Assembly: GCA_039621445.1 (NCBI GenBank)
Contig: CP154954.1
Coordinates: forward strand, 2,294,001 to 2,358,000
Length of the DNA stretch: 64,000 nt
Origin: Euglena gracilis
Taxonomy: Eukaryota
Reading direction: 5' to 3'
The notes beneath the pieces were generated by a model that was given only the letters and a program-made list of their open reading frames with translations, was not told the origin of the DNA and made no database searches. Positions 36,122 to 64,000 of this stretch are shown here, in pieces; positions within the stretch are counted from its first letter, which is position 1; each line of letters starts with the position of its first letter. The translations under genes were made by a program, and so were the position numbers.

Positions 36122-36133
36122 TGGTCGCAGAGG
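36122..36133 (+). promoter_or_regulatory. Primer-binding site, initiator tRNA-Met-like
   Basis: tggtcgcagagg lies immediately after the LTR, an 11/12 match to tggtagcagagg, the complement of the animal-type tRNAiMet 3' end. Confidence 0.7.
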
Positions 36134-36234
36134 TAGACTGCCCAATTTTGATTCCCCTCCGACATGCCGGCTTATACGAACCAGGAACTGGAAAAAAAAC
36201 GAACAAGAAAACTGCAAAAAAAACTGACGCTGAC

Positions 36235-39200: not shown

Positions 39201-40459
39201 TGAAACTGTCACTGCTGGAGGGCAGCCTGGACAGTGCCAGCAAACTGGAACTACAACGCAGACAGGAACGCGGTGAGAAAATAAAATACCAGGAATTTTG
39301 GAACTGGATGTGCCAGAAATACGGTGGAGACACGCAATCAGCCATCAAAGACGAACTGAAAAACCTGAGACCAAAAACGGAAGGAAAACTGACACTGGAA
39401 GCGTGGAGGGAGTTTGAGGCCCATTTCAAACTCCTCTACAGCAGGCTGGAAAATCCATCAGAGGAAGACGCTTACAACCTGGTGGCTGAAAAAATGCCTG
39501 AAACGCAACGCAGAAGCTGCATCAGGGAACAGGACCGCAGAAATCAGGACAGACCGACACTGAAACTGAAAGGGGTCACGAACATTATGAACGTCCCAGA
39601 TGCAACAACGGAAGACATACGAGACCTGGTGGCAGCAACAGTGGGCACAGGTGAAAATTTTCAGGTGGCGCGGGACGGACAAAACTTCAGGATCCAACTG
39701 CACAGCAGCAGAGCTGCTGAACTTCTCCTGATGAAAAACGGTTCAACGCTGCTGACTGGACACAAGCCACAATTCACACAGGTACAGGCCAAACTGACTC
39801 TGGACGAACTGTTCCAACGGGTGGAAACCGAACTCAGGTGCCAACAACAGTCAGACTCCCTGGGTAGGGGGTACAACGGCTGGCAGAACCAACTTCGTGA
39901 AAACAGGTCACGGTCGATGGACCGCAGGGGTTACGTCAGGGAAGTCAAGGAGGAGGAGAAAACAAAATCCAGAAGTCGGACACCACCTTCCAGATCCCGA
40001 CCCAACTCCCCTGGACCTCGAACCCCAACACCCGAAAAACCCAGACCCCCTTCTCCACGCCAGCAGATGCCCATGGCAGTTTCAGAACAGCCTGGCCAGG
40101 GACGGAACACCAACTGGTCAGACTGGGGACAGAACGACTGGGGCAAAGGCAAAGGAAAGGGGAAAGGTCAAAACTGGGGTTCAACCCAAAACTGGAACCA
40201 GAACTGGAATCAGAATTACGGCAAAGGCTACGATTCAGGAAAGGGATACAACTCTGGGAAAGGATACAATTCTGGGAAGGGGAGCGGGAAAGGAAAAGGC
40301 AAAGGGCAGCCACAGCCACAGCCAGCAGCAACGAAAACCGAACCACAGACACAGCAAACCAATTCACAGGAGCCAGCCAACCAGCCACAGGGACAGCCAA
40401 AGGCAGAAGCATCTTCCAGCAATCGCTGGCAGCCAGTTCAAAACACAGAACGGAAGTGA
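36235..40459 (+). CDS. Gag-like ORF1, broken into four overlapping frames
   Basis: ORFs 36034-36534, 36437-37063, 37047-39191 and 38912-40459 overlap end to end with uniform A-rich codon usage. They contain a long coiled coil, a capsid-like helical region (FWNWMCQKYG...WREFEAHF) and a GKG-rich basic tail. The start codon is uncertain. Confidence 0.7.
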
Positions 40460-43400: not shown

Positions 43401-46400
43401 ACGACATAATCGTAGGAACCGTATGGCAGGGGTCAGAAGACAAAACCCTTGAACAACACGACAAGGACATCAGAAGGGTGATGGAGGCACTGAAAAAACA
43501 GCAGCACGTGGCAGACATCAAGAAATGCAAATTTTTCGTGAAAGAGGTTGAATTCTGTGGACACGTGCTGGGTGGTGGACAACGAAAACCAGCACCTGGG
43601 AAACTGATGGCCTTGGAAAAATGGGAGGAACCCAAAACGGTCACAGCCCTGCGGGCATTCCTGGGATTCACAAATTACTACGCCTCATACGTCCCAGGGT
43701 ATGCAGAATTGGCTGCAGACCTAATGGAGAAACTGAAAGTGAAAAAGGGACAAGGAAGAAAGGGAAGCCTGACACCTGTGTTTTTCGGTGAAAAAGAAAG
43801 AACAGCCTTCCAGACCATCAAAGAAAAACTGCTCGGAAGCCTGAAACTGCAAACGGTGAACCCAGACAAACCGTTCATACTCAGGGTGGATGCAAGTGGC
43901 AGAGCCGTAGGTGCGGCTCTGGAACAATTTGCGGAGGACACTGCAGAAAAACCAGACCAAAAAACAGCCATGACCAAAAAAACAGTACCCGTAGCTTTCT
44001 GTTCACGAAAACTGGCACCTGGGCAGGTTCGCTCGTGGTCTCCTAGGGAGAAAGAGACCTACGCAGTGATCCTGGCCCTGCAAAAATGGGCTTCCTGGAT
44101 AGGAATGCAACCGGTACTGGTGTTGACGGACCACAAGTCCATTGAGGCATGGGCAACGGAGGCGCTGGACACCCCCAGTGGACCAGCTGGACGTAGGGCT
44201 AGGTGGCACGAACTGCTTTCGCGGTTCGACATAACCGTTGCATACGTACCTGGCAAAGACAACACGGTCGCCGATGCCTTGAGTAGGTGGGCCTACCCCG
44301 CCTCACAGGCATTCGCCGATGTGAGTATCCACGGGAGTGAGGAGGACGACCGACTCATGAAAGAAATCATCAAACAGGAGGAAAAGGAACAGAAAACTTG
44401 TATGGTGATCAACGTGGCAGACCTGACACAGGCACAAAAACAGCTTCAAGAACCCGTCACTGTGGCCGTCACAACAAGGGGGGGAGCCAAAACGGGTGAA
44501 GATTCGCCCACAGTGCCTGGTTCAACGGAAAGGCCCCGCCCAACGGAAAACGGTGACACCCCTCAAAAAAATTCAAAAACACCTCAAAAACCTGCAAAAA
44601 CGACAAAGAAATGGGTTGTGAAGGAAACGACTGTGGTGGAACCAAGCAAAAAACTGGCAGAAGCAACCCCAAGGGAGACCACGGATGAGGCGGGAAACCT
44701 GATCCGACCAGACCAACCAAAAAACAAAACCCCAGAAAATCCAAACACGGCCGAGGGACCATCCACTGAGGAAGACCCACCAAGGCGAAGACCCCTGGAA
44801 GAGGACCCTGTGGAACCCCTAACAACAACAGATTCAACAAAACAACAGGACGCGCAAGGTGCGTCATCCTCAACGGGGACACCCGTTGGACCTCCATCAA
44901 GGGGAGTGCACGCCCCGGAGCTTCAACAGGGGGAACCGAAAGGGGTGATGGACAAGGAATGGAAGAACGAGTACGAAAGTTGCCCAAGGTGGGGACCTGT
45001 GCTCAAGGACCTGAAGGAAACGGGGTTCAAAAACTGGCCTGACGGGTACCGATTCGACAACGGCAGGCTCTACAAAAACGGTCTCCTGTGTGTACCAAGT
45101 GGGTTGACTGGAAACGTAATTCGGGAACATCACGAGACAGCCGGGCACCCAGGGTCAACCCGACTGTGGGACCAGATGGGGAGGTGGTTTGCGTTTGCGG
45201 ACCATCAGGATGCAAAAAAACTGACAGGCAAAATGATGACCATGTGTGAAACCTGCCAAGCAACAGAACCCAGCCACCTACCATACAAGTGCCCCATTGA
45301 ACCGACACCGATTCCGGCACACCTCATGGACAGTGTTGCCATCGATTTGTTCTCTCTACCTGAAACGACCTTTGAAGGGAAAAAATACGACACGTTGGCG
45401 TTGTGTGTGGACAGGCTGAGTGGGTGGATGGTTGCAACCCCCCACCTGGCCAAGGGACTCACGGCAGAAAAGGTTGGAAAGGACATGTACAAACAGTGGG
45501 GAATTTTTGGGATACCCTCGGTGGTGAGCTCCGACCGGGGCTCCCACTTCACAGCCGGTTGGTGGAAAACACTGTGTGCTGCCCACGGGGTCCGTGTGGC
45601 GTACGGGCAGGCATACCACCACCAAGCCAACGGACGGGCTGAGGTAGCGGGTCAACAAGTCCTCCGAAAACTGGCAAAAAAAAAAAAAAAAAAAGGGGTA
45701 CCCTGGGTTGAACTCCTACCGAACGCCTTGAGGGCCCTACACGACGTCCCAGGTGAAACCGGTTTGTCACCGTACGAAATTGTGTTTGGCAGGCACAGAC
45801 CGTTGGCGGGATTGCCATACCAACCACAAAGGGAAGCGGAAGGGGCCTCAACGTTCTTGGACAGGATGAAGGAACAAGACCAGTGGGTGAGCCTGGTCCT
45901 GAACGAAAAACAACGTGAACGGGCTGAAACGGTGAACCAAAAACGCAGAGAACCACCTGCCTTGGAAATTGGTTCCAAGGTCTGGTATCAACCCGAAAGA
46001 CAGCCTGGTACCGACAAACTCGAACCGAAGTGGAGGGGACCAGCGGTGGTGTTGGAACGGGTAGGACAGCACTCCTATGTGGTTGAACTACGACCTGGAA
46101 ACCGACAACCTGCCCACCGTTCACAACTCAAACCCCACGTGGAGGACCTCTACAGCACAACCCCTGTCCCCCTCTACTTTTGGTCGGGCAAGGCACAGGA
46201 GTTGGAGGTCGGACCTGACGAATGGGAGGTTGACAAAGTGCTGAACCACCGCAGAAAAGACGGAAAACTTCAATTTTTGATTCAGTGGAAAAACTGGGAC
46301 CCGTCTGACACTCAGTGGGAACCCCTGAACCACTTCTTCCTCCGAACAAACAAAGATGTGGTCCAATATTGCAAGAAACGGGACCTGGCTGTGGATGTGA

Positions 46401-46426
46401 GGGAGTTGCTTGATGGGATGGAGTGA
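40460..46426 (+). CDS. pol: Pol polyprotein: Dam-like MTase, C5 MTase, protease, RT, RNase H, integrase, chromodomain
   Basis: Open from 40460 without stops. Motifs: NPPF 40880-40891; LDLFCG ~41345, PC 41522-41527, ENP 41642-41650; LIDTGA ~42245; YVDD 43394; VDASG/TDHKS/ADALSR; H..GH...C..C, AID, SDRG, NGRAE; EWEVDKVLNHR...FLIQWKNW...WEP ~46220-46330. Confidence 0.95.
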   Translation, partial: RGCGLRVGDERGDSLQTQPKQPNKTREPGPEPQRSYTLGKGGKKKPQKKNILTKKRLHSPEPKREQVSCRFGRAASRWVSENYHVKEEKMTEILSHFGVQPQLDAFATEKNKRFPQWWGSGSPDGTDAFEKDWHGKLLWMNPPFSKISQVVRKIQTDEAHALLMVPRWVHRKWYGEIKKLAVMSMFIPAGTKLFGQGDKNCRNTPWHVEVFLVCGHKTRCKYLPGFHKHFTPLHPTSKVRFGTAHEYPPVEDEVEGGEQKPDLGTEKPQKHIRKLQEAATATPERATAEKPKPKMLDLFCGTKSVSKVYEKMGFDVVTVDSDPRWKADYQVDVLDWDFRKHFKPGEFHTVVCGVPCTEFSIALTTRPRNLEKGDSLAKKALEIVEFLQPQKWWLENPRYGYLGKRDYMKPYPYIDVDYCQYTDWGYKKPTRIWGSPDILQVPAKRCDGKTCKNLDPNGGGHLVKLSNKHNIPAFKKFRIPEQLIQDLAGFHERLRQTSQAQAARQQPLQQPSPAQTARQNMLSQPSPELTGQQPNPDSTDKTEPDQNIRLPKRLCEPVSKLLLGQVISRKKAKQLLIEVRAVLPDGKKMFLQALIDTGAQANLVKKNLIPQQTFRRSQKPLALITADGTRMEGGLHEVTLELQFSSRVHNTDRTREWSTIGTFHDADIQVDAILGYPWMEQHQLGVFPHLQSLALIGEPLRLLSSWHQLKEQKHRERKIHQLQKNISAVRAMNLLIPAEAGQDEEKLFEDETTLETLARQLQKSAKKSDRVHGVVVVPEGQETQGEKVAELVKKLRQDYEGVPKIYPDPPERGPLGYGKIELKPGTVAKKQRPIHMTGERRQALIDMVDEWVRDLKVEDGRSDWSSPTFVVAKKGGKWRGVVDFRALNEATITDAHPLPRIEDILVQQGQRAMYSVLDLKDAFHQVPLRTESRPYTCCSTPKGTKQWRVVVMGMKNGVPIFQRVIEYSLEEVQDIANPYVDDIIVGTVWQGSEDKTLEQHDKDIRRVMEALKKQQHVADIKKCKFFVKEVEFCGHVLGGGQRKPAPGKLMALEKWEEPKTVTALRAFLGFTNYYASYVPGYAELAADLMEKLKVKKGQGRKGSLTPVFFGEKERTAFQTIKEKLLGSLKLQTVNPDKPFILRVDASGRAVGAALEQFAEDTAEKPDQKTAMTKKTVPVAFCSRKLAPGQVRSWSPREKETYAVILALQKWASWIGMQPVLVLTDHKSIEAWATEALDTPSGPAGRRARWHELLSRFDITVAYVPGKDNTVADALSRWAYPASQAFADVSIHGSEEDDRLMKEIIKQEEKEQKTCMVINVADLTQAQKQLQEPVTVAVTTRGGAKTGEDSPTVPGSTERPRPTENGDTPQKNSKTPQKPAKTTKKWVVKETTVVEPSKKLAEATPRETTDEAGNLIRPDQPKNKTPENPNTAEGPSTEEDPPRRRPLEEDPVEPLTTTDSTKQQDAQGASSSTGTPVGPPSRGVHAPELQQGEPKGVMDKEWKNEYESCPRWGPVLKDLKETGFKNWPDGYRFDNGRLYKNGLLCVPSGLTGNVIREHHETAGHPGSTRLWDQMGRWFAFADHQDAKKLTGKMMTMCETCQATEPSHLPYKCPIEPTPIPAHLMDSVAIDLFSLPETTFEGKKYDTLALCVDRLSGWMVATPHLAKGLTAEKVGKDMYKQWGIFGIPSVVSSDRGSHFTAGWWKTLCAAHGVRVAYGQAYHHQANGRAEVAGQQVLRKLAKKKKKKGVPWVELLPNALRALHDVPGETGLSPYEIVFGRHRPLAGLPYQPQREAEGASTFLDRMKEQDQWVSLVLNEKQRERAETVNQKRREPPALEIGSKVWYQPERQPGTDKLEPKWRGPAVVLERVGQHSYVVELRPGNRQPAHRSQLKPHVEDLYSTTPVPLYFWSGKAQELEVGPDEWEVDKVLNHRRKDGKLQFLIQWKNWDPSDTQWEPLNHFFLRTNKDVVQYCKKRDLAVDVRELLDGME

Positions 46427-47560
46427 CGCATGTCACATACCCCTGGGCCCCTCACAGACACCGTCACGTCGACACCCTGAACGACCCCGATGCCTACCCC
46501 AACCCTACTAACCTCTATCGATTTGAACCTGTACACCACTGACAAACCGGCCTGACTCAAAACGACAAAACGGGCCTAGGCAGCCCCCCCTGGCCAGCCC
46601 ACCTGAACCCGAACCGCTGGCCAGCCCAACTCGAACCAGCCCAACGGACCTGAACAAGACCCGACCCGACCCGAATTCACTGACCTCAAGTGCCTCTCTT
46701 CTGCCAATCAATCCATTCTTCAATTCTTCATCGTTGTTGTTGTGGGTTGGGACCCCCCCGTGGAGAACGAACCTACCCCCCTGAACTGGGCCAGCCTACC
46801 TGTAAAAAAAAAAAAAACAACCACCAACCCCAGCCGTAGCAGCCAGCCAAAACTGGGCAAACGGTGGAAGGGGAACCTGACTTTGTCCAAAAAACTCGAA
46901 CCTGGCCGACCCCGGGCCACAGGCCTGGGGGGGGGGGGGCGGGGACCCTCCACAGCACCTGACCTCACACAAACCAGCCTACCCCCCAGAAAAACATCAA
47001 AAATACAAAAAAAAACCATTGTCCTTGACCCAGCCTGATTTTTAACCGAAACCCAGCCTGCACCTGATTTTTATTAAAATTCGTCCCCGACCAAAGCCTG
47101 ACCGCTTGGCCTGGGGGGGGGGGCTGGAAGACCCCAGCTGGACCCACCCCCCACCGAACAGACACCAAGCCTAGACACCGAATTGGCTAACCGAACAGAA
47201 AACGGCTGTCTAGGACCCTGACCGTGACAAAACAACTCACCTGGCCTGGGAATAAGAATTTCCTGAAAATTTTAACCGTGGCTGGCGCTTGGTTCACAAC
47301 GGCGCCTGCCCCCCCCCCCCAACGACAAACAGCCCTAGGCGGGCTGGGGGGGGGACAACACACCAGACCCCGCACAGACCCAACTACCCAAAGGAGAACA
47401 TTTGACTCAGCCCCCCGGCCATAAAACGAACCTGAACGGCACAGCCCCCTGAGGGGGGGGACCCTGAACCACAACGGTCCCCTCGCTCACCCCCTCCTCA
47501 CAACGAGTGCACTCCGCACCCCTTCCTGTTGGAGTCGTGAAGAGTTGTAAACAACTCCTT

Positions 47561-47572
47561 CGGGAAGGGGAG
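47561..47572 (+). promoter_or_regulatory. Polypurine tract
   Basis: cgggaaggggag abuts the TG of the 3' LTR. Confidence 0.8.
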
Positions 47573-48051
47573 TGTGAGTCAGGGGTGCTGAGTGCCCAAA
47601 ACAACATAACCTAACCCAACCCAACCTGATGACTCTGCAGTTAGGATTAGGAAAATCTTATTAGGAATTATTAGCAGCTGACCCCATTTGTCTGCACAGG
47701 GCTCTGTCACTGTTTTTGTCTGTTTCAAGTTCAAGTATTGAATTACCCTGGTGGCAATTATCATTCTTACCTTGGACAGTACGTGGTGAATTACATTGGT
47801 GCTGGTTTTGGAATTGCTGAATTGCTTGTATTGTGCTGTTGGTCTTGTGGATTTTTTATCAAAGAAAAGGTGTGAGCCACCCAACTCACCTGTTTTCACC
47901 AAAAAGACCCACCAAAACAAAAGAAAATGCAATTTTTAAAACAAGCCGCGAGGGGAATTGAAAACACATTGGGCAGGGTTAAAGATCCTACGCAACGGGG
48001 TGCCGGCCCCGAGGAACTGGAAACTCGAGGGCGGGCACCACGGTTACAACA
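47573..48051 (+). repeat. 3' LTR
   Basis: tgtgagtcagg...ggttacaaca with TG...CA ends; direct repeat of 35629-36121. Confidence 0.92.
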
Positions 48052-50951
48052 GAATTGCCACCCTTTCCTTTGCAATAAAATGAAAATCTTTTCTCCCACG
48101 AAACTGATTTTTCGCTGTGTCCTGGCTAAATCAACCCCCCTGTGGAGGGCCAAAAGCCTCCAACAGATGATGAGTCTGTTTCTGATCTCTTTCACCGATA
48201 GGTCTGAGAGGGGTGTGTAATTCCTCATGATGTTTTCTAGGAAATCAGTGGGGTCCCAAAAGTGGGCATACTTGCAGACATTGGCATTCCACTTCCTTTT
48301 CAATGGAGCCAGAAGGGGTGAAAATCTCAAAGACCCAAACCCTGGGAGTAATAAGGCTGCTGCATATGCATTTCGTGCAGTATTGATGCTATGAAGAGCA
48401 AGATCAAGGATGGCTTCAGCCATCTTGGGGACTGTGCACTGCTGCAGAGGCACCCCTTTGTGCAATAATTGACCCACCAATGCCCTGAAGGCTGAGTCAT
48501 ATCTTTTGACATTTCCCAGATTTTTTATGTAAGTGTCGATACTGGACATCGAAACTTCCTGGGATTGTAATATTTGCCTGACACAATCAAGCAGGCCAAA
48601 TTCCACCTTGGGGGGGGGGGCATCTTCTCCCCCCAGCAGTTGGTGAACAGACCCCACTGGGGGGGTACTAGCAAAACCTTGCTGCCTGGCTGCCTGATTG
48701 ACATTAATTGGCGCCACCATGATGTCGAAGCCCAGTGGGGTACAATCAACAGACAAATTAGGTCTGGGTTTAACATTAATCTCTGAACCCATTGGGGAAT
48801 GATGCTCCAGGGAGGGTTGGCATAAACTGGGGGGAGACCCCTTAAATCTGCCTTCAGAGCATCCACCAACAAAGCCCCTTGGTGGGGGTATCGACAAATG
48901 AACTTGGGGATTTTTTTGTTGCTGGGTGTGCAAAACATGTCCACCTCTGGGGTGATGTGGTTTTTGAAAAACTTCAGAATCTGGTGAAAAATGGTCAGGT
49001 TCAGGGTATAATCCCCTGGATCTTTTTGCTCCCTGGTCAGGGAGTCTGCCAATTGTTCTTTTGTGGGAACCCAAACCACCTGCAAGTTGATTTGCCCTAC
49101 AATAGAGCTGAGTTTTCTGCAGCTCATCTTTTGTGCTGTCAGCACCTTTCCTAATTCCTTTCTTAGGGATTTTAATTTTTCCTGTGGAATTTCCAGCTGG
49201 CCTTTTTTCAAATTGATCCACTGGCCCAAATGCTTTATTTCTTGTGTTGGTTCCAGACATGATTTGGGGAGGTTTATTCTGAACCCTGCCAGTAAAAGAT
49301 CTTTTTTCATTTCTGCCAAATGCTGGGCTGCTGTTTTTTGCTGGGGGCTAACAGCAAAATGTCGTCTAGGTAGATGAAAACTACCTTTCCTTCCTTCCTC
49401 CATTTCCTTTCCCAGACTCTCATGAGAGTCATAAACTTTTGTGGCAGGCTGCTTAACCCAAAGCATGCAGCTTGAAATTGCCACGTTTCCCCCCCCACTT
49501 GCATGCAGACATGCTTTTCCAGGCTGCTGTACAGCTTTAAATGGAAATAAGCATCTTTCAGATCTATTTTTCCACAGAACCAACCCTTTCTGAGATATGG
49601 GAAAATGTTTCCCATGTGTTCCAGTCTGAACTTCTGGGGGGTGAAATGTTGATTTAACTGTCGACAATCTGAAATTAATCTTTCCTTTGTCTTTCCCCCT
49701 TCCTGTTTGGAAATGATAAAATAGGGGACAAAATGTTTTGCTCCCTCTGGGGTGATTTGCCTGGTTGCCCCTGCACATTCGTATTCCCTCAGATTTTTTT
49801 GGGCTGTCATTGTTTCTTGGGGAGTTTTGAAGGGAATTTTTAAGGACATCTGAGGGGGGAGGGGAAGATCTGCCCTGACCCCTTCCCTTATCAGGTTTAA
49901 TACCTCTGTGCTGGCCCCTGCCTTGACCCAATGGGGAATGCTGGCCTGCAGGGCCATGAATGGGGGCACCCCTGGGTGTAATGTGTCTGGGGAGTCCACA
50001 GGCCCCATCACTGGGGTCCCTTCCCCTGGCTGCCCCATCACTGGGGTCCTGCCTGGCTGCCCCATCACTGGGGTCCTGCCTGGCTGCCCCATCACTGGGG
50101 TCACCTTTCACAGGCAGGCTTTCCCCCTGATTTTGAAAGATTGGGGAAAGTCTGTGTCTGCAATGGGGAGGTACATGTATAGCTGGGGGGTTTGGCTTGA
50201 TTACCTTCTGGGGGGCCCTTGTGTAGCCAATCTTGGGCCTCCCCCCCAAGGGCTGGTGTGATCTTGAATGCATTGGCCTCCAATGGCCACTTGATTTTGA
50301 TTGAAATGGCCTCCATTGGCCTTGAAATCTTGATGCTGCTCCTGGCCTCCAGTGGCCTTTTGCATATAATGGCCTCCATTGGCCTTGATATTTCGATGCT
50401 TCCCCTGGCCCCCGTTGGCCTCTTGCACATAATGGCCTCCATTGGCCTTCCCCTGAAGGGGGGGTTGCTTGCCTGGATGTGCAGCTCCTGAGGGGTTTGT
50501 GTTTGAGGGAGCTGTGGGGTAAGTTGGACATACCTTTCCCCCATGGGAGCTTCCCAGGTTTGGACACAGGCTGCCATAGCCTTGCTCCTGGGCCCACTGC
50601 CCTCTTGGATGATGGCTTCCATAGCCATGATTCTGGGCCCCAGGCCCTGTCCAATGATGGCTGCCATAGCCTTGACTTTGATTTGAATCCTTTGGATTGA
50701 GACTGCCATAGCCTTTGCTTTTTCCCCTGAAAGGGGAGGAACTGAGAAAAAGGGGTGGAGTCTGTTGGACCTGTGATGGTGGTCCCCCTCTGTCGTCTCT
50801 TCCTGACCACAGTTGTCCATGGTCCATGGCCATCATTGTTAGTGGGGGGGTCAAATCTCTGAAGCGTTGGGGGGTGGGGGGGTTGCGATGGCCACGGACT
50901 GACGAGCTGTTGCCGCCCCTCCAGCTGCTGCAGCTGCTGCTGTGTCTCCAC
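48052..50951 (-). pseudogene. DIRS B coding region: ORF1, RT, deleted RNase H, Dam-like MT, N-terminal half of the tyrosine recombinase
   Basis: RT motifs RLISDCR, KIDLKDAYFH, FGL and YLDD (ORF 50104-49307, frameshift near 49335); VDMF...YANPPWS (MT); YR RNAYAA...LHRGVDL...QRKGWQF cut at the LTR. 27-bp tandem repeats at ~50000-50100. Confidence 0.88.
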
Positions 50952-51780
50952 CTTCCCCCAGCTTCAGTTGGCTTCTTGGAAGTCCGTTGAAGTTCTTCTT
51001 GAAATTCAAAGGTTCTTTGAAATTCATTCTTCATGGAAGTCTCGTTGTTGATCTTCGAAAAGTTGAATTCTTCCGTTAGGTAGTTGAAGTTCCGAAAATT
51101 TTCGTCCACTTGAGTCGTAGAAGTAAAATTCTTTCTCCTTGAGGTCGAAGGGCAGAAATAGGAATCAGCCAACTCCGGCAACAAAAAGCAGTAAGAAGCA
51201 CCCCCCGCGCACGCACAAACACACCAGAACAGAGCAGCCGGCAAGGAAAGCAGGACCTCACCATCTCGCAGTGCGGAGCCCGAGTGGTCGTGCTTCGCCC
51301 TCGGTGTCCCTTCCTCCCCGGTCGGTTTGCCTCGAGGGAGTACGAAAGCCCGATTGTCGACTCGGATCAGCACGTACCCAAAAACCCAAGGGCCATGCAG
51401 TGAGCCATCAGGCAATCGGCCGAGTCGATCGGGTTACTCGCAAAAATACCCCTGCGCGCGGCATTCGCGGTCGCATTCGCCGGAACGCGGATTTAAGGCC
51501 GTTAAAACGCTCCGGTAAGGAAGTGGGCGATTTCGGCAGAAGTTAGGGTTTCGGACCCGTTAAGGCAAGCGGCACACCTCTCCCAAAAATTAGGGTACAT
51601 TGGGGCAATTTTACGCAAAATGAATTCTCAAAAAAACCTTCCCAGACGGGGACCCTAATTTCTGACCTAACTTGTCACGCCGATCCTAACTAACAGCAGA
51701 ACACTAACCCTATTACACCTATTAACCCACACACATCCACATACACATTAACATATACATCTCTATAAACACATCCATAT

Positions 51781-51881
<101 letters not shown>

Positions 51882-52594
51882 GTTACACCGGCGCATTCAC
51901 AAAAGCCTTTGCTGGATGAGGGTAGATTATGGAAAATGAATGGTGACACATGCATCGACCGATATACTATCCGCCTTAGAACATTCATTGCGGCGCAGCG
52001 TAAAACGTTAATGGTGAACGTGCATCCACCAGCGGTGGATGGTGTCTGCGACTGCAGGGTTTGGGCTCAAGTTCGGACCCCACCACAGCTCCTTCTGACC
52101 TGACGCTCGGGCAATGGGTGTTATTTCCCCTCCCCCCGAGACGGTTGAGACCTGACAAGTCAGCCGTTTTGCATCCTTGTGGTGAAGTTTCCAACGCAAC
52201 AAACCAGGTGGTGGTGCCAAAAAGAGGGGTGCTGTTTTTCGTAGGCTTAAAGCAGGTGCTTATCGAAGCTGGAGGAGAACAACAAACTGACTGACGACCT
52301 AGGAACCCCCTTGCAGGAGGAGGGGTTCAGCTCCTTCTCTGATTGATCAGCCCCCAGCCCCCGGGGGTGTCCTCTGAACTAAAGTTGGGGCCAGCCCCAG
52401 CCCAACAAAGAAAGCCGGCATGGCCCGGGGGAAAAAATTCAAATATTTTTAAAAAAATATTCAAATATTCTGTTTGCCTGAACTCCCCCCCGGAACCCCC
52501 CGGGGGGGGGGCGGGGGGGGGGCAGGGCAGAACAGGAAAGCCTGGTGGGGGGGTCGACCCCCACCCGGGAGGTGGGGGGGTGGTCGCCCCCCAC

Positions 52595-52941
52595 CAGGGT
52601 TTGATATAAGGGCAGGTGGGGGGGGGTGGTCCGGACCCCCCCCCCCCTGCGGGCCAGGAGGGGGGGAACACCCCCCCCACCTAAATAGTGGCGCGGTCCG
52701 GGTGACCAAAAATTTTTGACCCCCCAAAACGACCAAAAGTGCCTTTTTGGGCACTTTTTGGGCAAAAATTTGCCAAAAATGCAAAAAAATTTTCGGCGCA
52801 AAGCGCCGGAGGAAAAAATTGACCCTTTTTGGGGGGCCCCGGGTGCCCCCCAGGGTCGGTCCGGACCCCCCGGGCAGGGGGGGGGGTCCGGACCCCCCCT
52901 GCGGGCCGGGGGGGGGGGGGACACCCTTATATCAAACCCTG
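52595..52941. mobile_element. hAT-like MITE
   Basis: 18-bp perfect TIR cagggtttgatataaggg / cccttatatcaaaccctg; TSD ccccccac/cccctcac (7/8). Confidence 0.88.
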
Positions 52942-53783
52942 CCCCTCACCCAACAAAGCATTTTCACCAATTTTGGGAAAACGGGAATTTTTTTGAAATT
53001 TTTTTGAAATTTTTTTTGAAAAATGAACCCAAAATACATGATGATGACGATGATGATTTTTTGATGGAAAAGCACATTTCTTCACAAAAAACACTCAAAA
53101 ATTTCAGATTTAAAAATTCGTAGTTTTTAGGAGGGGGGTAAAAATGACCAAATCAAATTTTACTGAAATTTTTTCTCTTGGAATTTTTGGGGTTTCAACG
53201 GCATTTTTCTTGCTTCAAAAACCCCTCAAAATCAAAATTTTGAAAAAATATTGAAACTTTGGAAGGTGTGAAAAAATGGGGTTTGGGGGATTATTGGGGG
53301 ACCTCCTATATGGGTCCCAAAATGGGTCAAAAAAAAACACCCGGCACCGAAAGAGGCGGGATACATTTTTGGGGTCCGAAAAATTGGCGCTCCCGAAAAT
53401 ACGAGAAGAGGTGGTGGGGGGGTGGTCGACCCTCCCCCCCCATCACCTTAGCTGTTTGGCCGAAACCCGTTCTGCCCTGGGGAGGGGGGAAAAAGTGCTG
53501 GCTGGACCCTTCCAGCAGCACCTTTTTCCCCAGCGAGCATCGTTTTCCAGCCAGCAACCCTGGTTGGGTCGGAACCCCCGGCGCCATTTTGGGTGTCTGG
53601 AACTGTTGGGGTTGGTTCCAGAGAGCTTCTTTGTGGTGCCGGGGCTCCAGCTGGGAGCTGCTGGCGGTAAAAAAGCGCTGGCTGGCTGGACCCCCCCGAG
53701 GATGTCAGCCCCCAGGCTTTAGAACCCCCCTAGACCTCTAGACCCAGACCTAGACCCTGGGCCCCGGTCCCCAGACCCTGGCC

Positions 53784-56078
53784 CAGCGGCTCGCTGTAGT
53801 ACGGCCGGGCAGCTGCGAGGACGTCGCCGCAAATTTGCAGCGGCGGCCGCGCGGTGCGGTTGGCCCCGCCAGGGTCGGGCGGGGGGATGTGGCCAGGCAC
53901 CTATGGTCACTTCCCATTTTGGTGCCCTGGTCGGCCCTGGTCGGCCCTGGTCGGCCCTGGTCGGCCCTGGTCGGCCCTGGTCGGCCCTGGTCGGCAAATA
54001 GTCGGCCATAGGTGGGGGTATCGTCACAGAAAAAAGATTGTGAAAAATGACCCAAAATTACCAAAAGGGCGTAAAATGGCCAAAATGCCATAAAATATGC
54101 TCACATTGACCCAAATTAGCCCAATATTTGCCAAATCAGTGACAAATGGCCCCCCAAGTTAGCAAAAACTGATCCGTAATGGCCAAAATGGGTGTAAAAC
54201 TGGAGATTTGTGGGGAAATTATCCAAAAATGGGTTGGGCTCTTCAAAATATACAATATACTGGCACAAAATGCTCAAAAATGGTCAAATTGGACCAAAAA
54301 GAGACCAAAAAAATGGGCAAAATAACAAAAAGTGGCCAAAAGCGGCCAAAAGTAGCCAAAAGTGACAACATGAGCCAGACGAGCCAGAAAAATCTCAAAA
54401 TCTGGGATAAAATTCCTCATTCTCGCTGAAAAATTGACATCAATCAGAAAAAAAGTTGCACGGTCGGCTGCGGTCGGCTGCGGTCGGCTGCGGTCGGCAA
54501 CCCACCTATGACAGTCCTGAAACCCGCGGTAACCCGCGGTCGATGCTGCCGGGCCAGCATCGTCCTGCATCGCCCAGCACCGCCCAGCATCATCAAAGGA
54601 GCTTTGTTCAGAGGGAAAGCTGCCTAAGTCCTTCATCCATTCCCCTTCGGTCGGCCAATCACATGCAAGTCGGCCCTGGTCGGCCCTGGTCGGCCCTGGT
54701 CGGCCCTGGTCGGCCCTGGTCGGAACCCCCACCTACGGGGGTCCTGAAAACCATAGTCGGCCCTGGTCGGCCCTGGTCGGCCCTGGTCGGCCCTGGTCGG
54801 CCCTGGTCGGCCATAGGTGCCTGGATGTGGCTGGGGGCGGGCCCCCCCAGCACGTGCTGGAGCAGCTTCCGGCCAGGCGGGATTGGCCAGGTTGGGGGGA
54901 GGGGGCGGGGAAAAGAAAGCGCGAGGAAACGTTCTGGGCGGTAACTCGCCACCCATTCGTCACGTGTGTGCGCATGTGCACACATGTGCACATGTGCGCA
55001 TGCGCGGCACGCGTTAATGCGTGCGCACACGTGCGTGCGTGCGTGCGTGCGCGTTATAATGTTGTGCTGCCCTGCAGGCTGTTGTGCCTCCTGTGGCCAG
55101 ATGGGAAGGGTATTAAACGAGTGGGGAGGGGGGGTGGTCTGGTCTGGACACCCCTCCCCGGGGGGAGGGGTGGGTCGGACCCCCCTGTCAAAAAAATTTC
55201 TTTCGGCCTGCCAAAATCGCGTTTTTACGCACTTTTCTCGAAAAACTGCGGCAAAACACACACCAAAATTATCACCTTCACTAGTGAGCAGTGCCGGAAT
55301 TTTTTTGGGGTTCTCGGGGGGTCCCGACCCCCCCCCCCGTCCGAAGGGGGGCACGAGGGGGAGGGGGTGGACCCCCGCAAAACCACCGCTCACTTCATAC
55401 CCTGCTGATGGGCTCATCGCCAAATCAGCCTGCTTGGGACGGAAATGGTCCCGAGTGCAGGAAGCTGCATAAAGGTCGAGCCCAGGCTTCATTTTTGAGA
55501 CCTCCCAGGGGGTGTGCTCCACAGGTTTCACGGGTTTGCACGGGATCCAATGAAAATCCGAATGACAAGATAATAAAGCAATGTTTTTATAATTTGAAAA
55601 AATTATAAATAAAAAAGTAAATATTTACTGACATTTGAATCATAAGAACAAGAAAAAATATGATAAATATAAGAAAAGAACAATACAATAAAAGATAATA
55701 CAAATTCCATTTTCTTTTCAACCTTCTCTTCATAAATCCTGGGGTTCTGGGATAAGGAAAACTCCCCCAAAACCACATCCCCAGCACCTTCCTGGGACCC
55801 CAGACCCCTGGCGTGGGGCCCTTCCCCCCCAGCAGTCCCACAGGTGGTCCCGGGGGCTTTCCAGTCAAAACGAGGCCTGGTCGAACCCGCAGTTGAACAC
55901 GGAATACCCACACTGAAACCCCAGGTCCCTTGGCTTCAGGTCGCCACTCCCGATTGCCAGGGCTTCGGCTCGGCGCCGGCCGCCCAGCGGTCCGCCGTTG
56001 TATTTTCTGAGCTCAGGGCTGACATTGGAATCAGGCATTTTATTATTATCATTATTATCATTATCATCATCATCATCA

Positions 56079-56152
<74 letters not shown>

Positions 56153-56195
56153 GTTATTATTATTAATATTATTACTAATATTATTAATATCGTCG

Positions 56196-56253
<58 letters not shown>

Positions 56254-59200
56254 TGTTATTTATTAATTATTATTATTATTATTGTTATTAATGATCCATA
56301 TTATTTTCTAATTTTTTTGGGTGCCTTGAAAAAACTTATAAATGCCTGAAAATGCCCAATTCTTCATTGCCAAAACGCCTTAAAATGCCTTAAAAATTTG
56401 GGCTGGAGGAATTTTTTTCCAACCAAGAAAAAATGAAAAGTGCAAAAATCTCCAGGAAAAACACCTTATTTCTGGCATGGCTGGAGCATTGTCTACTTAA
56501 CCAAAACTCAAAAAATGTGGGTTTTGACTCTTTTGGTTTTGGGCGAACGTGCAAAATCAAAAATGTTGGTTCGCTGCCTGGACAGCCCCTGGACCGCCCT
56601 GGAAAATAGCGCCTTCAAATACCTTAAACTGCCTTAAAATGCCTTAAAAATCCTTAAAATGCCTTAACTTGCCTTCTAAATTGTTTTTTTTTTGCCTGAA
56701 CTTGGGGATCATGCGTGTTTGGAATGATCCCCATCCCAAGTCACTTGGGAGAGTCTGGTCAGGTGGCGGAGGGGGGGGGGCTGCCCTCCCCAGTGTTCCA
56801 TCGTCCATCAGCAGGCAGCCGGAGACCCGTGAACGCCGATGCAGGTCATGCGGGGAACTCAACGGGCACCCATTCTCGTGGATTTCTGCCAGTGCCAGGA
56901 GTTTTTTTTTAAGACCGGGGGGGGGGGGAGGGGGTGCCCCCCACCCCCCTCCCTGGGGGGGGCCCCCCGGCGGGGGGGAGGGGGTCCTGGGGGACCCACA
57001 AAAAATGGCCGAAAAATCGCGAAAAGTGCTAAAAATAGAATTTTTTCGGCGCCCGCGGCGCCGAAAAGTATATCCCACCGCCCTCCGGGGGGGACCCCCC
57101 CTGGGGGGGGGAGGGGGTCCGGCGGACCCACCCACCCGAAGCCCCCACCCCCCCCCCCGGGGGTCCAAACTTAAAAAAAACCCTGGCCAGGACCCTGGCA
57201 ACTTCCTGGCCGGACAACGGGGCAGCAGGTTTTTGGGCTTTTGGCATCGTTTGGGCCACGACAGTTGCCCAGAGTGGATGGCAAAAAGGCCGTCCACTCT
57301 GTGTGGCTGGATGGCCGCTGACCCGGCAACAACCCGGTCGTCCAATCCCCAGGCCACAAACTTCAAATGTGGAGCGATGGTCGTTACCAGGGTCTGCTGA
57401 CCAATGATTCTTAAGCTGGAGGGCTGGACCAGGGAAGGCAGAACGGGAAGGCCTGGTTGGGGGGTTGTTGACCCCCCCCCCCCCCCCGGGAGTCGGATCT
57501 GGGCGCCTTGAAAATGCTGCCCAAGCAGGCACCCCCCACCCCATCTGGGGTGGGGTCAGCCTCGCCTGGGATTTCAGCCTGATTTCGACGAGAAAAAATA
57601 TTGGAGAACACTTTTTTTTTGACGCAGAATCAGAATAATAGCTCACCCCCCAAATCAAAATTGTCGGGACAATATTAACTACCCCTCCCCCCGGGAAACT
57701 GTCACCTGACAGGTTGGCCAGTACCGGGGACCCTGACAACTTCCTATACTGACAGGTTGGCCGGTACCGGGGACCCTGACAGTTTCCCGGGCGGGACCCT
57801 GACAGGTTCTCGGGCATGACAGTTTCCCGGGGGGGTGGGGGTAGGTAGTCCCCGGGGAGGGTGGGCGCCTGGCCGCGATGGCCCCGTTGCGGTGGGTGTT
57901 CAGCACGAAGAACTCCGCGGCGCTGGCGTTGAAGCGGTCCGCCAGGGGCGGCAGCTGCGCGACGTGGCGGCAGTCCGCCCACCAGAAGTTGCCGGAGTAG
58001 TGGTGGTTCGGGGCAGAGCTCTTGTTTTGGGGGGAGGTGCCGTGTGCTGGTGTGTGTTGTGTTGTGTGCGTGTGCGTATGCTTGCGACGTGTGTGTTTTG
58101 TGAGTGTTGTGTGTGTTGTGTGTGTTTGTGACATGTGTTTTGTGTGTGTGTGTGTTGTGCAGGTCGTGTGAATTTGTGATGCCAGTGTTTTGTGTGTAGG
58201 TGTTTGTGTGTTGTGGGCGGGTGGGTGTGAAGGTGAGTGAGGTTGGAGCCGGCCCCCAATACCCACCCACAGCATCAAACAAGCGTTGGTAGGAGATATG
58301 GGATCACAAAATATTCCTGCGGCATTTTAGATCCCCGGTGCAAGTGGCACACCGCCAAGCAAAAGTCTTTGTCCAACTGGTGTCAAAAATCTTTCAGACA
58401 AGAAATTTGTCCCCCCCGAGAAGAACAAAACATGACAGAGAATGAAAAATCACAGCTTGGCCACATTACATTTTTTGTGTTTTGTTTTGCAAGTCTTCTG
58501 ACAGTTCACAAACCTCCAAATGCACACCCCCAGACCAAACCTGTAGCATCGTGACTGCGTATTGGTTGGTGGTTGACGCGGATGGCTTATATCGCAGACC
58601 CAACCCCACCCCTTCATTTCCCGAGGTTCCATGGAAGTGAGGGAACTCCTAATACTTTCGGCAAGAGGTGTCGATAGGGTTTGGACCCCAAATGACCACC
58701 AAAAGTCGTTCCCTTGAGACCACTCCGACCGGCTCTTCAAAAAAAAAGCTTCTGCTTTTGGATTGGGGAAAACCATTCCCCAATCAATTTCCACAAAATA
58801 TCTTTCCCAAAACTTTTTTTTGAAAAAAAATTGTCCCCAATTTATTTGCCATTAAATCAACCTTACACTTTTAAATCCATACGCAATTCCTCGGTAACAA
58901 AAACAGGGGAGTGTGTTGAAAACTTTTTGCCTCTTTAAAACTGGAGTATTTCGGATTTATTTAAAACATTTTCCCCTTTGGGGTTCCACAGAGGTGGCTG
59001 GGTGGATGCTGACCCATCCTCCTCCCGGGTGGCAAATACCAACCGCCTCAAAATGAAAAGGCTTTCATAAAGCCCTGCACTCCACCGCACAAATAGTGCT
59101 CTCCAAAACGCCTGAGGAACAGGCTTCTGCTTGAGGGCCTTGGGGGATCCACTGGCTCGCCATTTTGCTAGACACTGGAAAAACCGGCAGCTGCACCTCC

Positions 59201-61027
59201 CCTCCCGGCTGGAAAAAAGTTTTCTCCGGTGCTGTGTGACGAGGTTTAATGCTTTTTTTGGGCCAGTGGAAATCCTAATAAACCCTCACAGGGCTAGCCA
59301 GCTTTTCTCCAATGACCTCTGCGAAGCGCCGAAACAAATTGGACCCCAAAACAAACGTGGCAAACAATGCCCATTTCTGGCCATTTTGTGCCCCCCCCCC
59401 CTGCTGCGGACCCTTAAGCATAAGCCCGCCGAGGAATCAAAAAAAAAAGAGGGCGAGGGGTGTCTGCCTGGCACTCGTTCACCAACCCGCGGTGGCTGGG
59501 GGGGGGTGTGTGTACCAGTCCTCCGTCTCTCTGGCCGCTGACCCCCTCTGCCCCCCTGAACACCAAACCCTGGGCCTGGTTCTCGGCGCCGCACGCGAGG
59601 TAGCCACCATGGATTCACTTAGTGACCCCGGGAGCCCTGGACTGGGGGCACTTTTCCCCGGGCCCAAACCCACCCCTGGGGGGGGCAGGGTTGTGGGGGA
59701 ATCTCCGAGGGGGGGGGTGGGGGGGACCCCCTCCGGAAGGGGGGGGGGGGTGGGGGGGACCCCCCCTCCTACCTCCAGTTTTCGGTCGCCGAAAATTTCG
59801 GCCACTTTTGGGGGGTCAAAAGGTCAATTTTTCTGAAACTTCTCAAAAAATGGTGGGTAATCAAAAGACATGTCCAATACCTAAATTGAAGCCCTTAAAA
59901 AGCCCTATCTAACAGTATTTTGATTTTCTGGCAACTCCCCACCTGTCCCGATTTATGGTCATTTTTGGCCATTTTGCCAAAATTTCACGTTGAGCCTCAA
60001 AAAAAGTCCTAAAATACACTCCCAGCGCGAAGCGCCGGAAATTTTTTTTGCCTCCGCAGAGGAGGAGGGGGGGGTGGGAGGGGACCCCCTTCCGAAACTA
60101 GGGGGGGAGTGGGCAGACCCCCCCCCCCTACCACCTTACCCCCCTAGGGGGAGGGTGGGGGGACCCCCCCCCACCACCTACCTCATGTCTGCGGAGCTTC
60201 CCATACAACCCTGGGGGGGTGCTAAATGAATCTATGGTAGCCGCGCAGGAGGGCCCGTTCCAGGCCCCCCCTCCTGTCCGGGGTCCAAGCGGGGCTGAAG
60301 CGAACGGAATGGGGGCTGCTGGGCAGGCAGGGGGGAAACACAACGTGTACCCTCAAAAAAAAAACGACACAAAAAAAAAACGCAAAAAACCTGCAAAAAT
60401 GAAAATTTTGCCAAAACCCAAAAACACACACACACAAAAAAACGCAAAAAAACGCATTTGCTCCCCCCCGGGGGGGGGCAGGTCGCCTGGATGGCCCGCT
60501 TCCTTTCTTCGCATGCTTTGTCAGACCAGACGCGCATCGGGAGAAAACGCTGGGGAAAGCCCGCTGCAAAATCCGCACTTGGAATGGAGGCGGGAATGAT
60601 GCGAGGGACTTCCTTTGACGGGTATCAATTTTTTTGATTCTGCATTTGGCAAACACTCTGTGTTGGGGGTGAATGCATCTGGGCTTTGAAAAACGAGCAT
60701 GGAAGCCATACGAGTCGGCCCAAATCAAAGGGGAGGGTTAGGGTTAGGGTTCGGGTGAGGGTCAGGGTTAGGGATATGGTAAGGGTCAAGGTCAGGGTCA
60801 GGGTTAAGATTAGGATCTGGGTAAGGGTCACGGAATTTTGCCGATGGCGGTGGTGATTACCCGTGGAGGCCCTATGGGCCATCGTTGGTTTTTGAATGTG
60901 AGGTACCCAGTGGTACCCATTACCATATATATATGTATGTATATGTATATATATGTATATATATTATATATAATATATATGTATGTATATATATATATAT
61001 ACATATATAAACAACAAATACATACAT

Positions 61028-61070
<43 letters not shown>

Positions 61071-62945
61071 TACATTACAATAGGTACCCAGAGGTACCTA
61101 TTGTGCCATTGCTTACGGTCCCCTGGGGGAAGTCACCACATTTGGATTTGGGCAAACTCTTAGGTAAGAGTGTGGCCTCCTATTTTCCCCACCCAGTTCA
61201 AAATCCACTTTCCCAAAATTTAGCTTGTCGTGTGCGGAACACTTTTGGGAGTGTTTCACAGGCTACAATATGGAGCTTCCCAAATTATGGCTGCTGAAAA
61301 TAAAAAAACCAAATAAAAATTATGGAATGAGGCCACGTGAATGGAGTGTCAAAAAACCTTCCAAAATGGGACCTAACTCCCGGCCTAACTTTGGCCTTAA
61401 ATCGGCCACTTTTGGTGCGACGATCCAAACCTTAACCCAAATTCCCTTGAAAAATAGCCATCCCCCGAATACGACAGAAGCTGCTTGATCAATGGAGTTT
61501 TGTCAATTTTTTCCAACCATGCCGACCACTCCTGGGCGGGGTTCCGTAGCCAAAACCAGTCATTAACCCCCTCCAAGGTGGGGTCACACTCACATCCAGC
61601 AACGGTATGAATTTTTTCTTTAGCAAAAAAAGCCAAAGAAGATTTCCGCCGCCTTCGGTGCCAGCAACTTTCGGCCATTTCTGACAGAACCCACTTAGGG
61701 GGTCTAGCCAAAAACCTCCCCCAAAAAGCCCCATGGGGGATCACTAAGCAACTGTATGACCCCAACCATACCATTGCTTAGCGATCGGTCACTTTTTCGG
61801 AAAACCAGTCAGTCACTTTACCCCCTCAGGGGGGGATCGGCCACTCTTCAGGAGGCAATGAAAATTTGCCAAAAAGTCTCAAAAAATCCAAAAGATTTCC
61901 GGCGCCAGGCCAGTCACTTTTTCATTTTCGGGCCTGCTCCCCCCGGGCTATTGGCCAAAAAAAAGAGTCAGTCACCCCCTCGGGGGTGGGGCAGGACAGG
62001 TGTTAAGCAATGGTATGATCCCCATCCACGCGCCCTGAGGGGCGGCCTGGGCTCGATGCAGACGGAAGGGAACTCGACGACGACGGCGTTCATGAACTCC
62101 CGCCACGCCACCACCGCGTCGCTCGGGGCCACCCGACTGCTCGCGCCCCATGGGGTGGATCACCGCAACTCTGGGGGGAGGTTGGCGGACCGGTTTTGTA
62201 GGTACCCGCCCCCCCCCCTTGTCGTACGACCGGGTTCCTGCAACCTGTGACCGGGGGGGGGGGCGTAACACCCCCATGACCTGCAACCTGTGACCGGGGG
62301 GTGGTCGTACGACAAGGGGGGGGGGGGCGGGTAATTCGTTTTTTGGATTGGGACGTCTCCGTGGGTGACTCAGCAGTGTTTGTTTTCTTTTTTTTATTAA
62401 AGTTGATTCGTTCTTTTGGGGGACAACTTGAACCTGTGGGGTGACTGGAATGGTAACCTGTTTCAACTGGAATATGCGCCACCCCCATAAACACTAAGTG
62501 ATCCCCTTGCGAAGACACCGCCCACTGGAATGAACAGGCTGGTAGCTTTGGTTTTGGCAATCTTATCATAAGACCCGAATATCCTTCTAACCCCCCCCCC
62601 TCAAAGCAGCAAAAGCATCACGAGAAAACCACGCCAGCCAGCCGTATTATCCAACACACACTTTCCTCGCTTCGATACTCTTTTCGACACCACCACCCGT
62701 TTCTGTCTGCCAAACGCGTCCCTTGGACCCCTCCCATTGGCCGGCGGAACGCGCATGCGAAGCAGTGGTGCGTCCCTCTCCTGCCGGTGCTCGTTGTGGC
62801 GAAATTCAGAGGTGCGGCTGCAGCAGCCGCCCTTGGAGTGGAGGTAGTACACGAAGGCCCGCTTGCCCCGGCGCACGCGGTCCGCGCAGTATGCCTGCAC
62901 CTTGGCCGCGGGGCGGAATGCGGGACGGAACACCTTTTTGCGCAC
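53784..62945 (-). CDS. Multi-exon gene for an uncharacterised YxHSKG...WR..M...HYSGNFWW protein
   Basis: Exons ~62945-62787 (AFVYYLHSKGGCC), ~62135-62053 (AWREFMNAVVVEFPSVCI), 60255-60240, 59602-~59580, 58008-~57868 (HHYSGNFWWADC), ~55480-55436 (DLYAASCTRDHFRP), 54868-54827, 53888-~53784. The joins from 62053 to 58008 and from 55436 to 53888 give continuous frames; any exon between ~57868 and ~55480 is unresolved. Confidence 0.75.
53894..54823. mobile_element. hAT-like element forming a non-conventional intron (53889-54826)
   Basis: 13-bp TIR caggcacctatgg / ccataggtgcctg, perfect 8-bp TSD gatgtggc (53886-53893, 54824-54831), (tcggccctgg)n subterminal arrays. Confidence 0.9.
56040..56290. 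repeat. (ATT)n/(ATC)n compound microsatellite
   Basis: Directly visible trinucleotide tracts. Confidence 0.95.
56896..57185. mobile_element. CAGGGG-Tn family MITE
   Basis: Body is nearly the same as 4308-4584; TSD gccagtgc/gccaggac (6/8). Confidence 0.85.
59608..60236. mobile_element. CAT...ATG TIR element interrupting coding sequence
   Basis: Imperfect TIR catggattcacttag / ctaaatgaatctatg; TSD gtagccac/gtagccgc (7/8). Confidence 0.8.
60735..60830 (+). repeat. Degenerate interstitial (TTAGGG)n-like tract
   Basis: gggttagggttagggttcgggtgagggtcagggttaggg... Confidence 0.65.
61767..62017. mobile_element. Second copy of the cataccattgctta TIR element (inverted relative to 13254-13548)
   Basis: Same TIRs and internal gtcagtcac motifs; degenerate TSD. 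Confidence 0.8.
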
Positions 62946-64000
62946 CTGCGGGGTGGGGTTGGCGCCATGTTAAAACCACCCCCCCAAGTAATACCCCCCC
63001 TTGGGCCAGGACTTCGGGCGAAAAAATAATACCCCGGGGGGTATTATTTGGGGGGTTTACCCCCCCCATGTCCAACGACGTTGGAGGACACTATTTGGAG
63101 GTTTTTGGCCTGGTGGAAAGCGCTGGGCCGAAAATCTTTGTGCCCAAAATCGCCAAAATGCCATTTTTGGCACTCTTTGGTCAAAAAAATTGTCAAAAAC
63201 GTCCAAATTTTTTTGACCCCGAAGCGCCGGAAGGGAAAAAATTGATTTTGTTTTTTTGGGGGGGTTCCCAGGTGCCCTCCAACTTCTTCTTGGCTTCCTG
63301 TCTAACAACCCCCCCCCCCCCCGGTTGGTGGGCAGAGATTACTGTGGTGGGCAGAGATTACTGGTCGTTGGACATGGGGTGAAACATCGACCCTTGAAGA
63401 AAAAGCGCGACATTTTGCCTATTAAAAATGAAAAAAGACATACCGCCCCGAACGTGAATGGTGGAGGCCTCCCCACATGTCGCATGTGGGTCGCGCTCCA
63501 GCTTCCTCTTGACCTTCTGCGGGGCATGACTGTAATAGTCGTGGGCAGGCCGCGCCCGTGTAATTGGGGTGGCGATGCGACACCTTGACACAAAAACTTG
63601 GTTGCAGAAAGGGCGTTCAGTACCAGAGGCATCTCCCCCTTGGGTGGCGTTCGTACCATGGGGGGGGGGTGGTGCGCCAATTGTACCTTGGGGTGTGAAC
63701 GTTAAACGTGCAAATCGGTGAGTAAAGCCAAAAACTGGACTAAGAAATTAGTATATTATGAATGCATACACATATAAATTGAATATAAATTAATAAATGT
63801 ACAATGCTCCGAATCTGCCAAACTCCTGTCCCGTCGGCCAAACGCTTGCGGGGTTCGTTATCCTTGGGAGCCAGGGCTGGGGGGGGGGGGCAGTGCACCA
63901 GCCCCCGGCCCATTCGTGCCCGAATGTAAGCCATTCTCCCTGAACCGGGGACACCCAGGGCTGCATGGCAAGGCCTGGGTGGGGGGTACAACCCTCCCTC

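Follow-up and report, generated by a model that had tools for sequence, protein, structure and literature searches.

A 930-bp transposon-like element that interrupts the coding sequence of an expressed minus-strand gene in Euglena gracilis is missing from transcripts of that gene, together with exactly eight further nucleotides. It is very probably a transposon-derived intron that the euglenid non-conventional splicing machinery cuts out by reference to the helix formed by the element's own ends, leaving a restored mRNA. The element was first picked out by a sequence-only reading of a stretch of 64,000 nucleotides, which is the whole of the DNA analysed here and is called the window below. That reading held that an 8-bp target-site duplication, divided into three and five nucleotides by the splice sites, accounts for the positional code of euglenid introns. 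Our analysis confirms the observation and supports the interpretation at the level of the locus, and the general claim is plausible.

Structure of the element and its host gene

The element, its CAG...CTG inverted ends and its perfect 8-bp duplication are present as the sequence-only reading had described them, and the border sequences on the minus strand are exactly those it gave (Table 1). Read along the minus strand, the order is exon, GCCACATC, CAGGCACCTATGG, about 900 nt, CCATAGGTGCCTG, GCCACATC, exon; the 8 nt flanking the arms on the outside are identical, reading GATGTGGC on the plus strand at 53886-53893 and again at 54824-54831. An inverted-repeat search returned arms of 14 nt that are 100% complementary at a spacing of 904 nt. 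The 13-mer CAGGCACCTATGG occurs without mismatches at just two sites in the 64 kb, 53894-53906 (+) and 54811-54823 (-), and a third match, with 2 mismatches, is no more than chance would give (1.79 matches are expected when up to 2 mismatches are allowed). When the whole window was scanned for 10-nt inverted ends (at most 1 mismatch) bordered by a perfect 8-bp direct repeat, 86 raw matches came up, nearly all of which are homopolymer or microsatellite sequence, with the 930-bp element among the few clean ones; 20 mononucleotide shuffles yielded 0-2 matches each, 6 in total. A chance origin of the structure is rejected by the 13-mer counts and the shuffle scan.

The two longest open reading frames of the element have no Pfam match, no second copy of the element was found within the 64-kb window, and a metagenome scan with its first 29 nt returned no match. 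Contig depth over the interior is very high, and some contigs run off into sequence unlike it, which may point to related copies, although the interior is rich in simple repeats.

Table 1. Positions of the element, its parts, the neighbouring exons and the introns of like build (window coordinates)
Feature	Positions	Strand	Basis or remark
Non-autonomous DNA transposon, MITE-like (probable), 930 bp	53894-54823	.	Perfect inverted ends and perfect 8-bp duplication; no Pfam match in the two longest ORFs
Terminal inverted end, 13 bp	54811-54823	-	Exact match to CAGGCACCTATGG, part of the 14-nt arm
Terminal inverted end, 13 bp	53894-53906	+	Exact match to CAGGCACCTATGG, part of the 14-nt arm
Target-site duplication, upstream copy, GCCACATC on the minus strand	54824-54831	-	In the published register, first 5 nt exon, last 3 nt intron
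Target-site duplication, downstream copy, GCCACATC on the minus strand	53886-53893	-	First 5 nt intron, last 3 nt exon
Subterminal 10-bp tandem array, about 14.7 copies, interrupted	54669-54812	.
Subterminal 10-bp tandem array, 7.2 perfect copies	53924-53995	.	Oriented like the array at 54669-54812
Inner inverted repeat pair, 93% complementary	54006-54738 (54006-54019 and 54725-54738)	.	Reuses the CACCTATGG core of the ends
Probable intron in the N3-CAG...CTG-N5|R register, 938 nt	53889-54826	-	RNA joint; sole fit among 10 registers; predicted terminal helix
Exon upstream of the element, 42 nt	54827-54868	-	RNA joints, open frame, registers
Exon downstream of the element, 105 nt	53784-53888	-	RNA joints, open frame, weak homology to P0001
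Micro-exon, 12 nt, 4 residues	60243-60254	-	Letters between a joint in three runs; homologue alignment
Non-conventional intron B, 567 nt: CAGG...CCTG element of 559 bp plus 8	54869-55435	-	Duplication decayed to 5/8
Non-conventional intron C, 405 nt: element 55483-55879 (397 bp) plus 8	55478-55882	-	Duplication 7/8

The host gene was assembled by joining its exons by coordinates, the 12-nt micro-exon included, and the spliced sequence forms one open frame that runs over nine joints to a stop near 52008-52010. Its 44-aa exon at 57877-58008 is 69% identical to P0001, a 405-aa transcriptome-derived protein that tblastn places colinear with the window exons. In a local alignment, the spliced product and P0001 are identical at 108 of 223 columns, with no gap at the insertion site. 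Pfam returned no match for three single exons of the host gene, nor for P0001, in whose database row PF27674.1 is listed; a metagenome scan with P0001 gave 45 pattern matches, of which none was confirmed, and no relative. Because the frame is open, the RNA joints (described below) connect the exons and the P0001 alignment is ungapped, we conclude that the flanks of the element are coding and that the mRNA lacks exactly the element and one copy of the duplication. The frame that the sequence-only reading had obtained by removing the 938 nt at 53889-54826 is thus recovered, and it continues over all nine joints; the exonic nature of the flanks, which that reading had presupposed, is borne out by the continuous frame and by a colinear homologue without a gap at the site.

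RNA joints and the splice register

Three contig sets (X15, X16 and X17), which are only guessed to be RNA, and a raw RNA-seq run (X21) were aligned to positions 47000-63000. The transcripts without the element that the sequence-only reading had anticipated are found in all four. A joint from 53884 to 54823, with a positional ambiguity of 9 nt, skips 938 nt, which equals the 930-bp element plus 8. It is carried by one contig in each of X15, X16 and X17 (depths 116.9, 144.5 and 54.6) and by three raw reads of X21. The neighbouring joints have the same contig depths and 8-14 raw X21 reads each, and the 938-nt skip shares one contig with eight further intron joints. No back-joint at the element ends occurs among the joints listed for X15, X16, X17 and X21 in 47000-63000.

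Since an empty site and a spliced product are identical in sequence, the same joint would be seen if the RNA came from a second allele or a paralogue with an empty site, the window copy being a disrupted, non-functional allele. More than one allele or strain is in fact expressed: at two exon sites the transcripts of X15, X17 and X21 have another base than the window (53832 A>G and 57958 C>T), so that the allele expressed in these sets differs from that of the window. The X16 contig, however, has the window bases at both sites and still carries the 938-nt skip. Moreover, introns B and C, which have the same build, are missing from the same contig, and the element has every feature that was needed for splicing in the knock-in experiments reported in PMC12501133. 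We consider an empty-site source improbable, and the spliced RNA most likely derives from the allele that bears the element.

Two further features of the RNA alignments concern the gene more broadly. An alternative in-frame joint, from 58002 to 62820, skips 4817 nt and four exons at a depth of 363 in X15 and 489 in X16, above that of the full chain, and could reflect a paralogue or exon skipping. In addition, raw reads often end in long G/C runs at 52502-52522, 56917-56934, 57472 and 59739-59758, and joints connect these places, some of them on opposite strands; the pattern resembles a dispersed repeat with homopolymer runs at its borders, or a mapping artefact.

Euglenid non-conventional introns have pyrimidine|purine junctions and paired ends, are released as full-length circular RNA and are removed after the conventional introns. 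Milanowski et al. are said to have placed CAG at +4 to +6 and CTG at -8 to -6 of these introns (2014/2016). Knock-in genetics led Nomura et al. (2025) to the signature N3-CDG...CH'G-N5-6|R, in which the donor side requires a spacer of exactly 3 nt, the acceptor side has one of 5 nt but tolerates 6, and the downstream exon starts with a purine (PMC12501133). At our locus a 3|5 cut is invisible in the RNA, because the perfect duplication makes all 10 registers compatible with the joint give the same mRNA. We therefore take the probable cut register, 53889-54826, from the published code, which is fitted by only one of the 10 equivalent registers, ATC-CAG...CTG-GCCAC|A (pattern N3CDG/CHGN5/R). Both junctions read C|A in this register, as the sequence-only reading had noted, which is automatic given a perfect duplication. 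The element also matches the E. gracilis intron consensus reported in PMC11170887, CCAGG at +3 to +7 and CCTG at -9 to -6, and the predicted fold of the 938-nt RNA has a 14-bp terminal helix in both the minimum-free-energy and the centroid structures.

Removal of the element by the ordinary spliceosome at cryptic GT-AG sites is scarcely credible. We found no point in its support, and none of the 10 registers that agree with the RNA joint has GT-AG or GC-AG boundaries. The joint coordinates thus rule out spliceosomal removal, barring a U12-type or other spliceosomal variant.

In the mechanism that we propose, a non-autonomous cut-and-paste DNA transposon would have inserted in a coding exon of the expressed minus-strand gene, duplicating 8 bp. 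In the pre-mRNA, the ends of the element would pair as a 13-14-bp helix with CAG/CUG at its base, and the non-spliceosomal euglenid machinery would measure from this helix, placing one cut 3 nt ahead of CAG and the other 5 nt past CUG, the latter directly before a purine. The element and exactly one copy of the duplication would leave, the mRNA would equal that from before the insertion, and the element would have been an intron from the moment it inserted. We infer both transposition as the origin of the element and the nature of the splicing machinery acting here.

The arithmetic behind this proposal can be read directly at the locus, where one duplication copy ends in the 3-nt spacer and the other begins with the 5-nt spacer. 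Excision would restore the pre-insertion mRNA because 3+5 equals the 8-bp length of the duplication, and all that is needed besides is that position 6 of the duplication be a purine; here it is A. The sum put forward by the sequence-only reading thus holds at this locus when set against the functional code reported in PMC12501133. Equality of 3+5 with the duplication length also predicts a mirrored junction consensus, namely Y|R at both junctions with C at position +3 of the intron and of the exon, and a mirrored consensus is reported by Milanowski et al. (PMC3935182, PMC4770533). This agreement is compatible with the proposal and not decisive, since one enzyme cutting both sites could also explain the mirror.

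Elements of the same build in the gene and the window

Two lines of evidence, one from the host gene and one from the window, indicate that the 930-bp element is no one-off. Seven of the nine introns of the host gene fit the code, all with CAGG-type ends, and their duplications match at 8, 7, 5, 4, 3, 2 and 2 of 8 positions. Taken together, the seven introns have 31/56 matches in the duplication register versus 20/56 in the next 8 nt outward; without the 930-bp index case the figures are 23/48 and 15/48. The excess is modest and comes from two introns, a pattern to be expected if duplications decay with age. The two introns that do not fit the code lie at 59606-60242 and 62124-62774. In the former, on the minus strand, the downstream exon opens with the same 7 nt (GGCTACC) as the intron, and the intron ends pair via CCATAGATTCA and TGAATCCATGG, which suggests a different type of element or a different cut rule.

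Across the window we counted 280 CAG...CTG end pairs (12 nt, at most 2 mismatches, 50-5000 bp apart). Nine of them have flanking repeats matching at 6 or more of 8 positions and seven at 7 or more, whereas in shuffled sequence 5 of 1018 end pairs reach at least 6 matches and none reaches 7. Four of the nine candidates have G- or C-run flanks and so count less. With a low-complexity filter, perfect flanking repeats among the 280 end pairs number three at 8 bp and two at 7 bp, with none at 4-6 or 9-12 bp. A MITE family of 257-277 bp with the ends CAGGGGTTTTTTTA is represented by two copies in opposite orientation, at 4308-4584 and 7826-8082, each with its own perfect 8-bp duplication (TTATGCAC and TACACAAC, respectively). 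Two CAGGG-ended elements, 1375-1823 and 14437-15788, have perfect 16-nt inverted ends and carry the 7-bp duplications CCTTGGA and TTTCAAG, so the duplication is not always 8 bp; under the code, insertions in exons with 7-bp duplications would shift the frame.

These counts also bear on how the 8-nt repeat at the 930-bp insert arose. Repair of a double-strand break that captured filler DNA would leave such a repeat as a by-product, with no transposition footprint, and the authors of PMC4770533 offered break repair for the 8-nt repeat at a new gapC intron. For the present insert we hold this to be very unlikely: its perfect 13-bp inverted ends directly abut the 8-nt repeat, the separate CAGGGGTTTTTTTA family has an own perfect 8-bp repeat at each of its two oppositely oriented copies, and perfect flanking repeats cluster at 8 and 7 bp in place of spreading over the lengths from 4 to 12.

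Insertion by transposition, which we prefer for the 930-bp element, may be extended to euglenid introns at large. The non-conventional splicing code would then be the RNA counterpart of one transposon superfamily with CAG...CTG ends and 8-bp duplications, and exonic insertions with a purine at duplication base 6 would be removable introns from birth. We put this forward tentatively, as a proposition whose chances we rate slightly below even. The sequence-only reading had offered 3+5=8 as a general explanation; the arithmetic stands at the locus, and the basis for its generality consists of one gene and the window-level excess of 8-bp duplications. If the proposition is true, most of the roughly 70% of Euglena introns that are non-conventional and 'slidable' would be fossil insertions of that superfamily.

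Several CAGG-ended elements with 6-7 of 8 flank matches are nested in introns of the host gene, at 52523-53479, 52595-52941, 56896-57185, 59686-60213 and 60479-62037. One of them lies inside another, and introns may thus grow by repeated insertion; several have G- or C-run flanks, which makes their duplications less certain.

The window also contains retroelements. An A-rich stretch at 36000-48000 includes, at 40460-46426 (+), an open frame of 1988 aa with reverse transcriptase, RNase H, integrase and chromodomain matches, as in Ty3/gypsy elements of the chromovirus type. The N-terminal part of this frame has a match to Dam N6-adenine methyltransferase that passes the cut-off (E 2.8e-7) and one to C5 cytosine methylase that narrowly misses it (E 3.4e-4), and the frame could belong to a retrotransposon carrying DNA methyltransferase domains. 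Open frames with a reverse-transcriptase match (49307-50107) and a weak Dam match (48525-50963) fall within 47896-50963 (-), which may be a second, degraded copy of this kind of retroelement in the opposite orientation.

Superfamily, prior work and comparison with known systems

The ends of hAT elements follow the pattern YARNG and their targets the pattern nTnnnnAn. As judged by these patterns, the element end CAGGC agrees at 4 of 5 positions of YARNG and departs at position 5, and the duplication (GCCACATC/GATGTGGC) does not fit nTnnnnAn on either strand. No transposase, including the hAT dimerisation domain PF05699, was found in the 10 open reading frames scanned among the 51 of at least 180 aa in the window, nor was one found inside the element. 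Short inverted ends together with an 8-bp duplication are given in PMC4316626 as the hallmark of hAT, and hAT-superfamily MITEs resemble our element in the 8-bp duplication, short ends starting with CAG, subterminal repeats and a non-coding body of less than 1 kb. Unlike them, our element has a fifth end base and a target that depart from the hAT consensus, and the scanned frames lack a transposase.

It is accordingly conceivable, if on balance doubtful, that the element is a true transposon-derived intron from outside hAT, either of another superfamily with 7-8-bp duplications or of an undescribed euglenozoan one. Besides the departures at the fifth end base and the target, and the transposase result, the 7-bp duplications of the two CAGGG-ended elements with perfect 16-nt ends favour such an assignment. 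Pointing the other way, the published hallmark is present, and the sibling CAGGGG family in the window has perfect 8-bp duplications, of which TTATGCAC fits nTnnnnAn. Of the label 'hAT-like' used in the sequence-only reading, the 8-bp duplication and the CAG ends hold up, and the fifth end position, the target pattern and the search for a transposase in the 10 frames do not add to it; we regard it as a fair description of what may be a resemblance only.

The origin of euglenid non-conventional introns has been debated since the 1990s. A MITE-like origin was proposed in 2014 without an identified element (PMC3935182) and was repeated in 2024-2025 (PMC11282704, PMC12501133, PMC12621601); a 2024 review already labels CAG/CTG as 'TIR' and the junction repeats as 'TSD-like' (PMC11282704). 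For the recently gained intron 4 of gapC in Euglena agilis ACOI 323, eight-nucleotide direct repeats were reported and attributed to double-strand-break repair (PMC4770533). In the main texts of open-access papers, we found neither the 3- and 5-nt spacers added up to the length of an 8-bp duplication and linked to hAT in Euglena, nor the involvement of any defined transposon family. The present locus is an unusually clear case; two of the ideas behind it, descent from a MITE and the presence of an 8-nt repeat next to a young intron, were in print before.

What the locus adds is an actual young element whose ends and duplication are still intact, RNA evidence that it is removed exactly, and adjacent introns in which decay has gone further. 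The question of origin becomes a genome-wide test, in which introns re-registered on CAG/CTG are examined for a step in flank identity at 8 nt. The proposal supplies a rationale for the spacer lengths of 3 and 5 nt established by knock-in genetics, may account for the 'slidable' nature of 84% of Euglena introns, and gives annotators a rule for placing ambiguous boundaries.

With euglenid non-conventional introns in general, the element shares all defining cis features, the terminal pairing being predicted, and its absence from the mRNA. Most described euglenid introns have CAG/CTG and short 'slidable' repeats only, whereas the element keeps 13-bp ends and a perfect 8-bp duplication, and it is because these are intact that it can be recognised as a transposon. 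Intron 4 of E. agilis gapC is likewise a young non-conventional intron with eight-nucleotide direct repeats; unlike for our element, the main text of PMC4770533 describes no transposon ends or family for it. Transposon-made introns, or introners, are known from Micromonas/Aureococcus, Amoebophrya and Polarella, and MITE-derived non-canonical introns from Fritillaria (PMC11282704). As would be the case at our locus, introners place a DNA transposon in an exon, the duplication supplies part of the boundary, and removal together with one copy restores the message (PMC11282704). In contrast to our element, they are removed by the spliceosome, with relaxed specificity in some lineages, and their duplications are 3-5 nt long (PMC11282704), whereas the cut sites of the Euglena element are proposed to be measured from the helix of its inverted ends.
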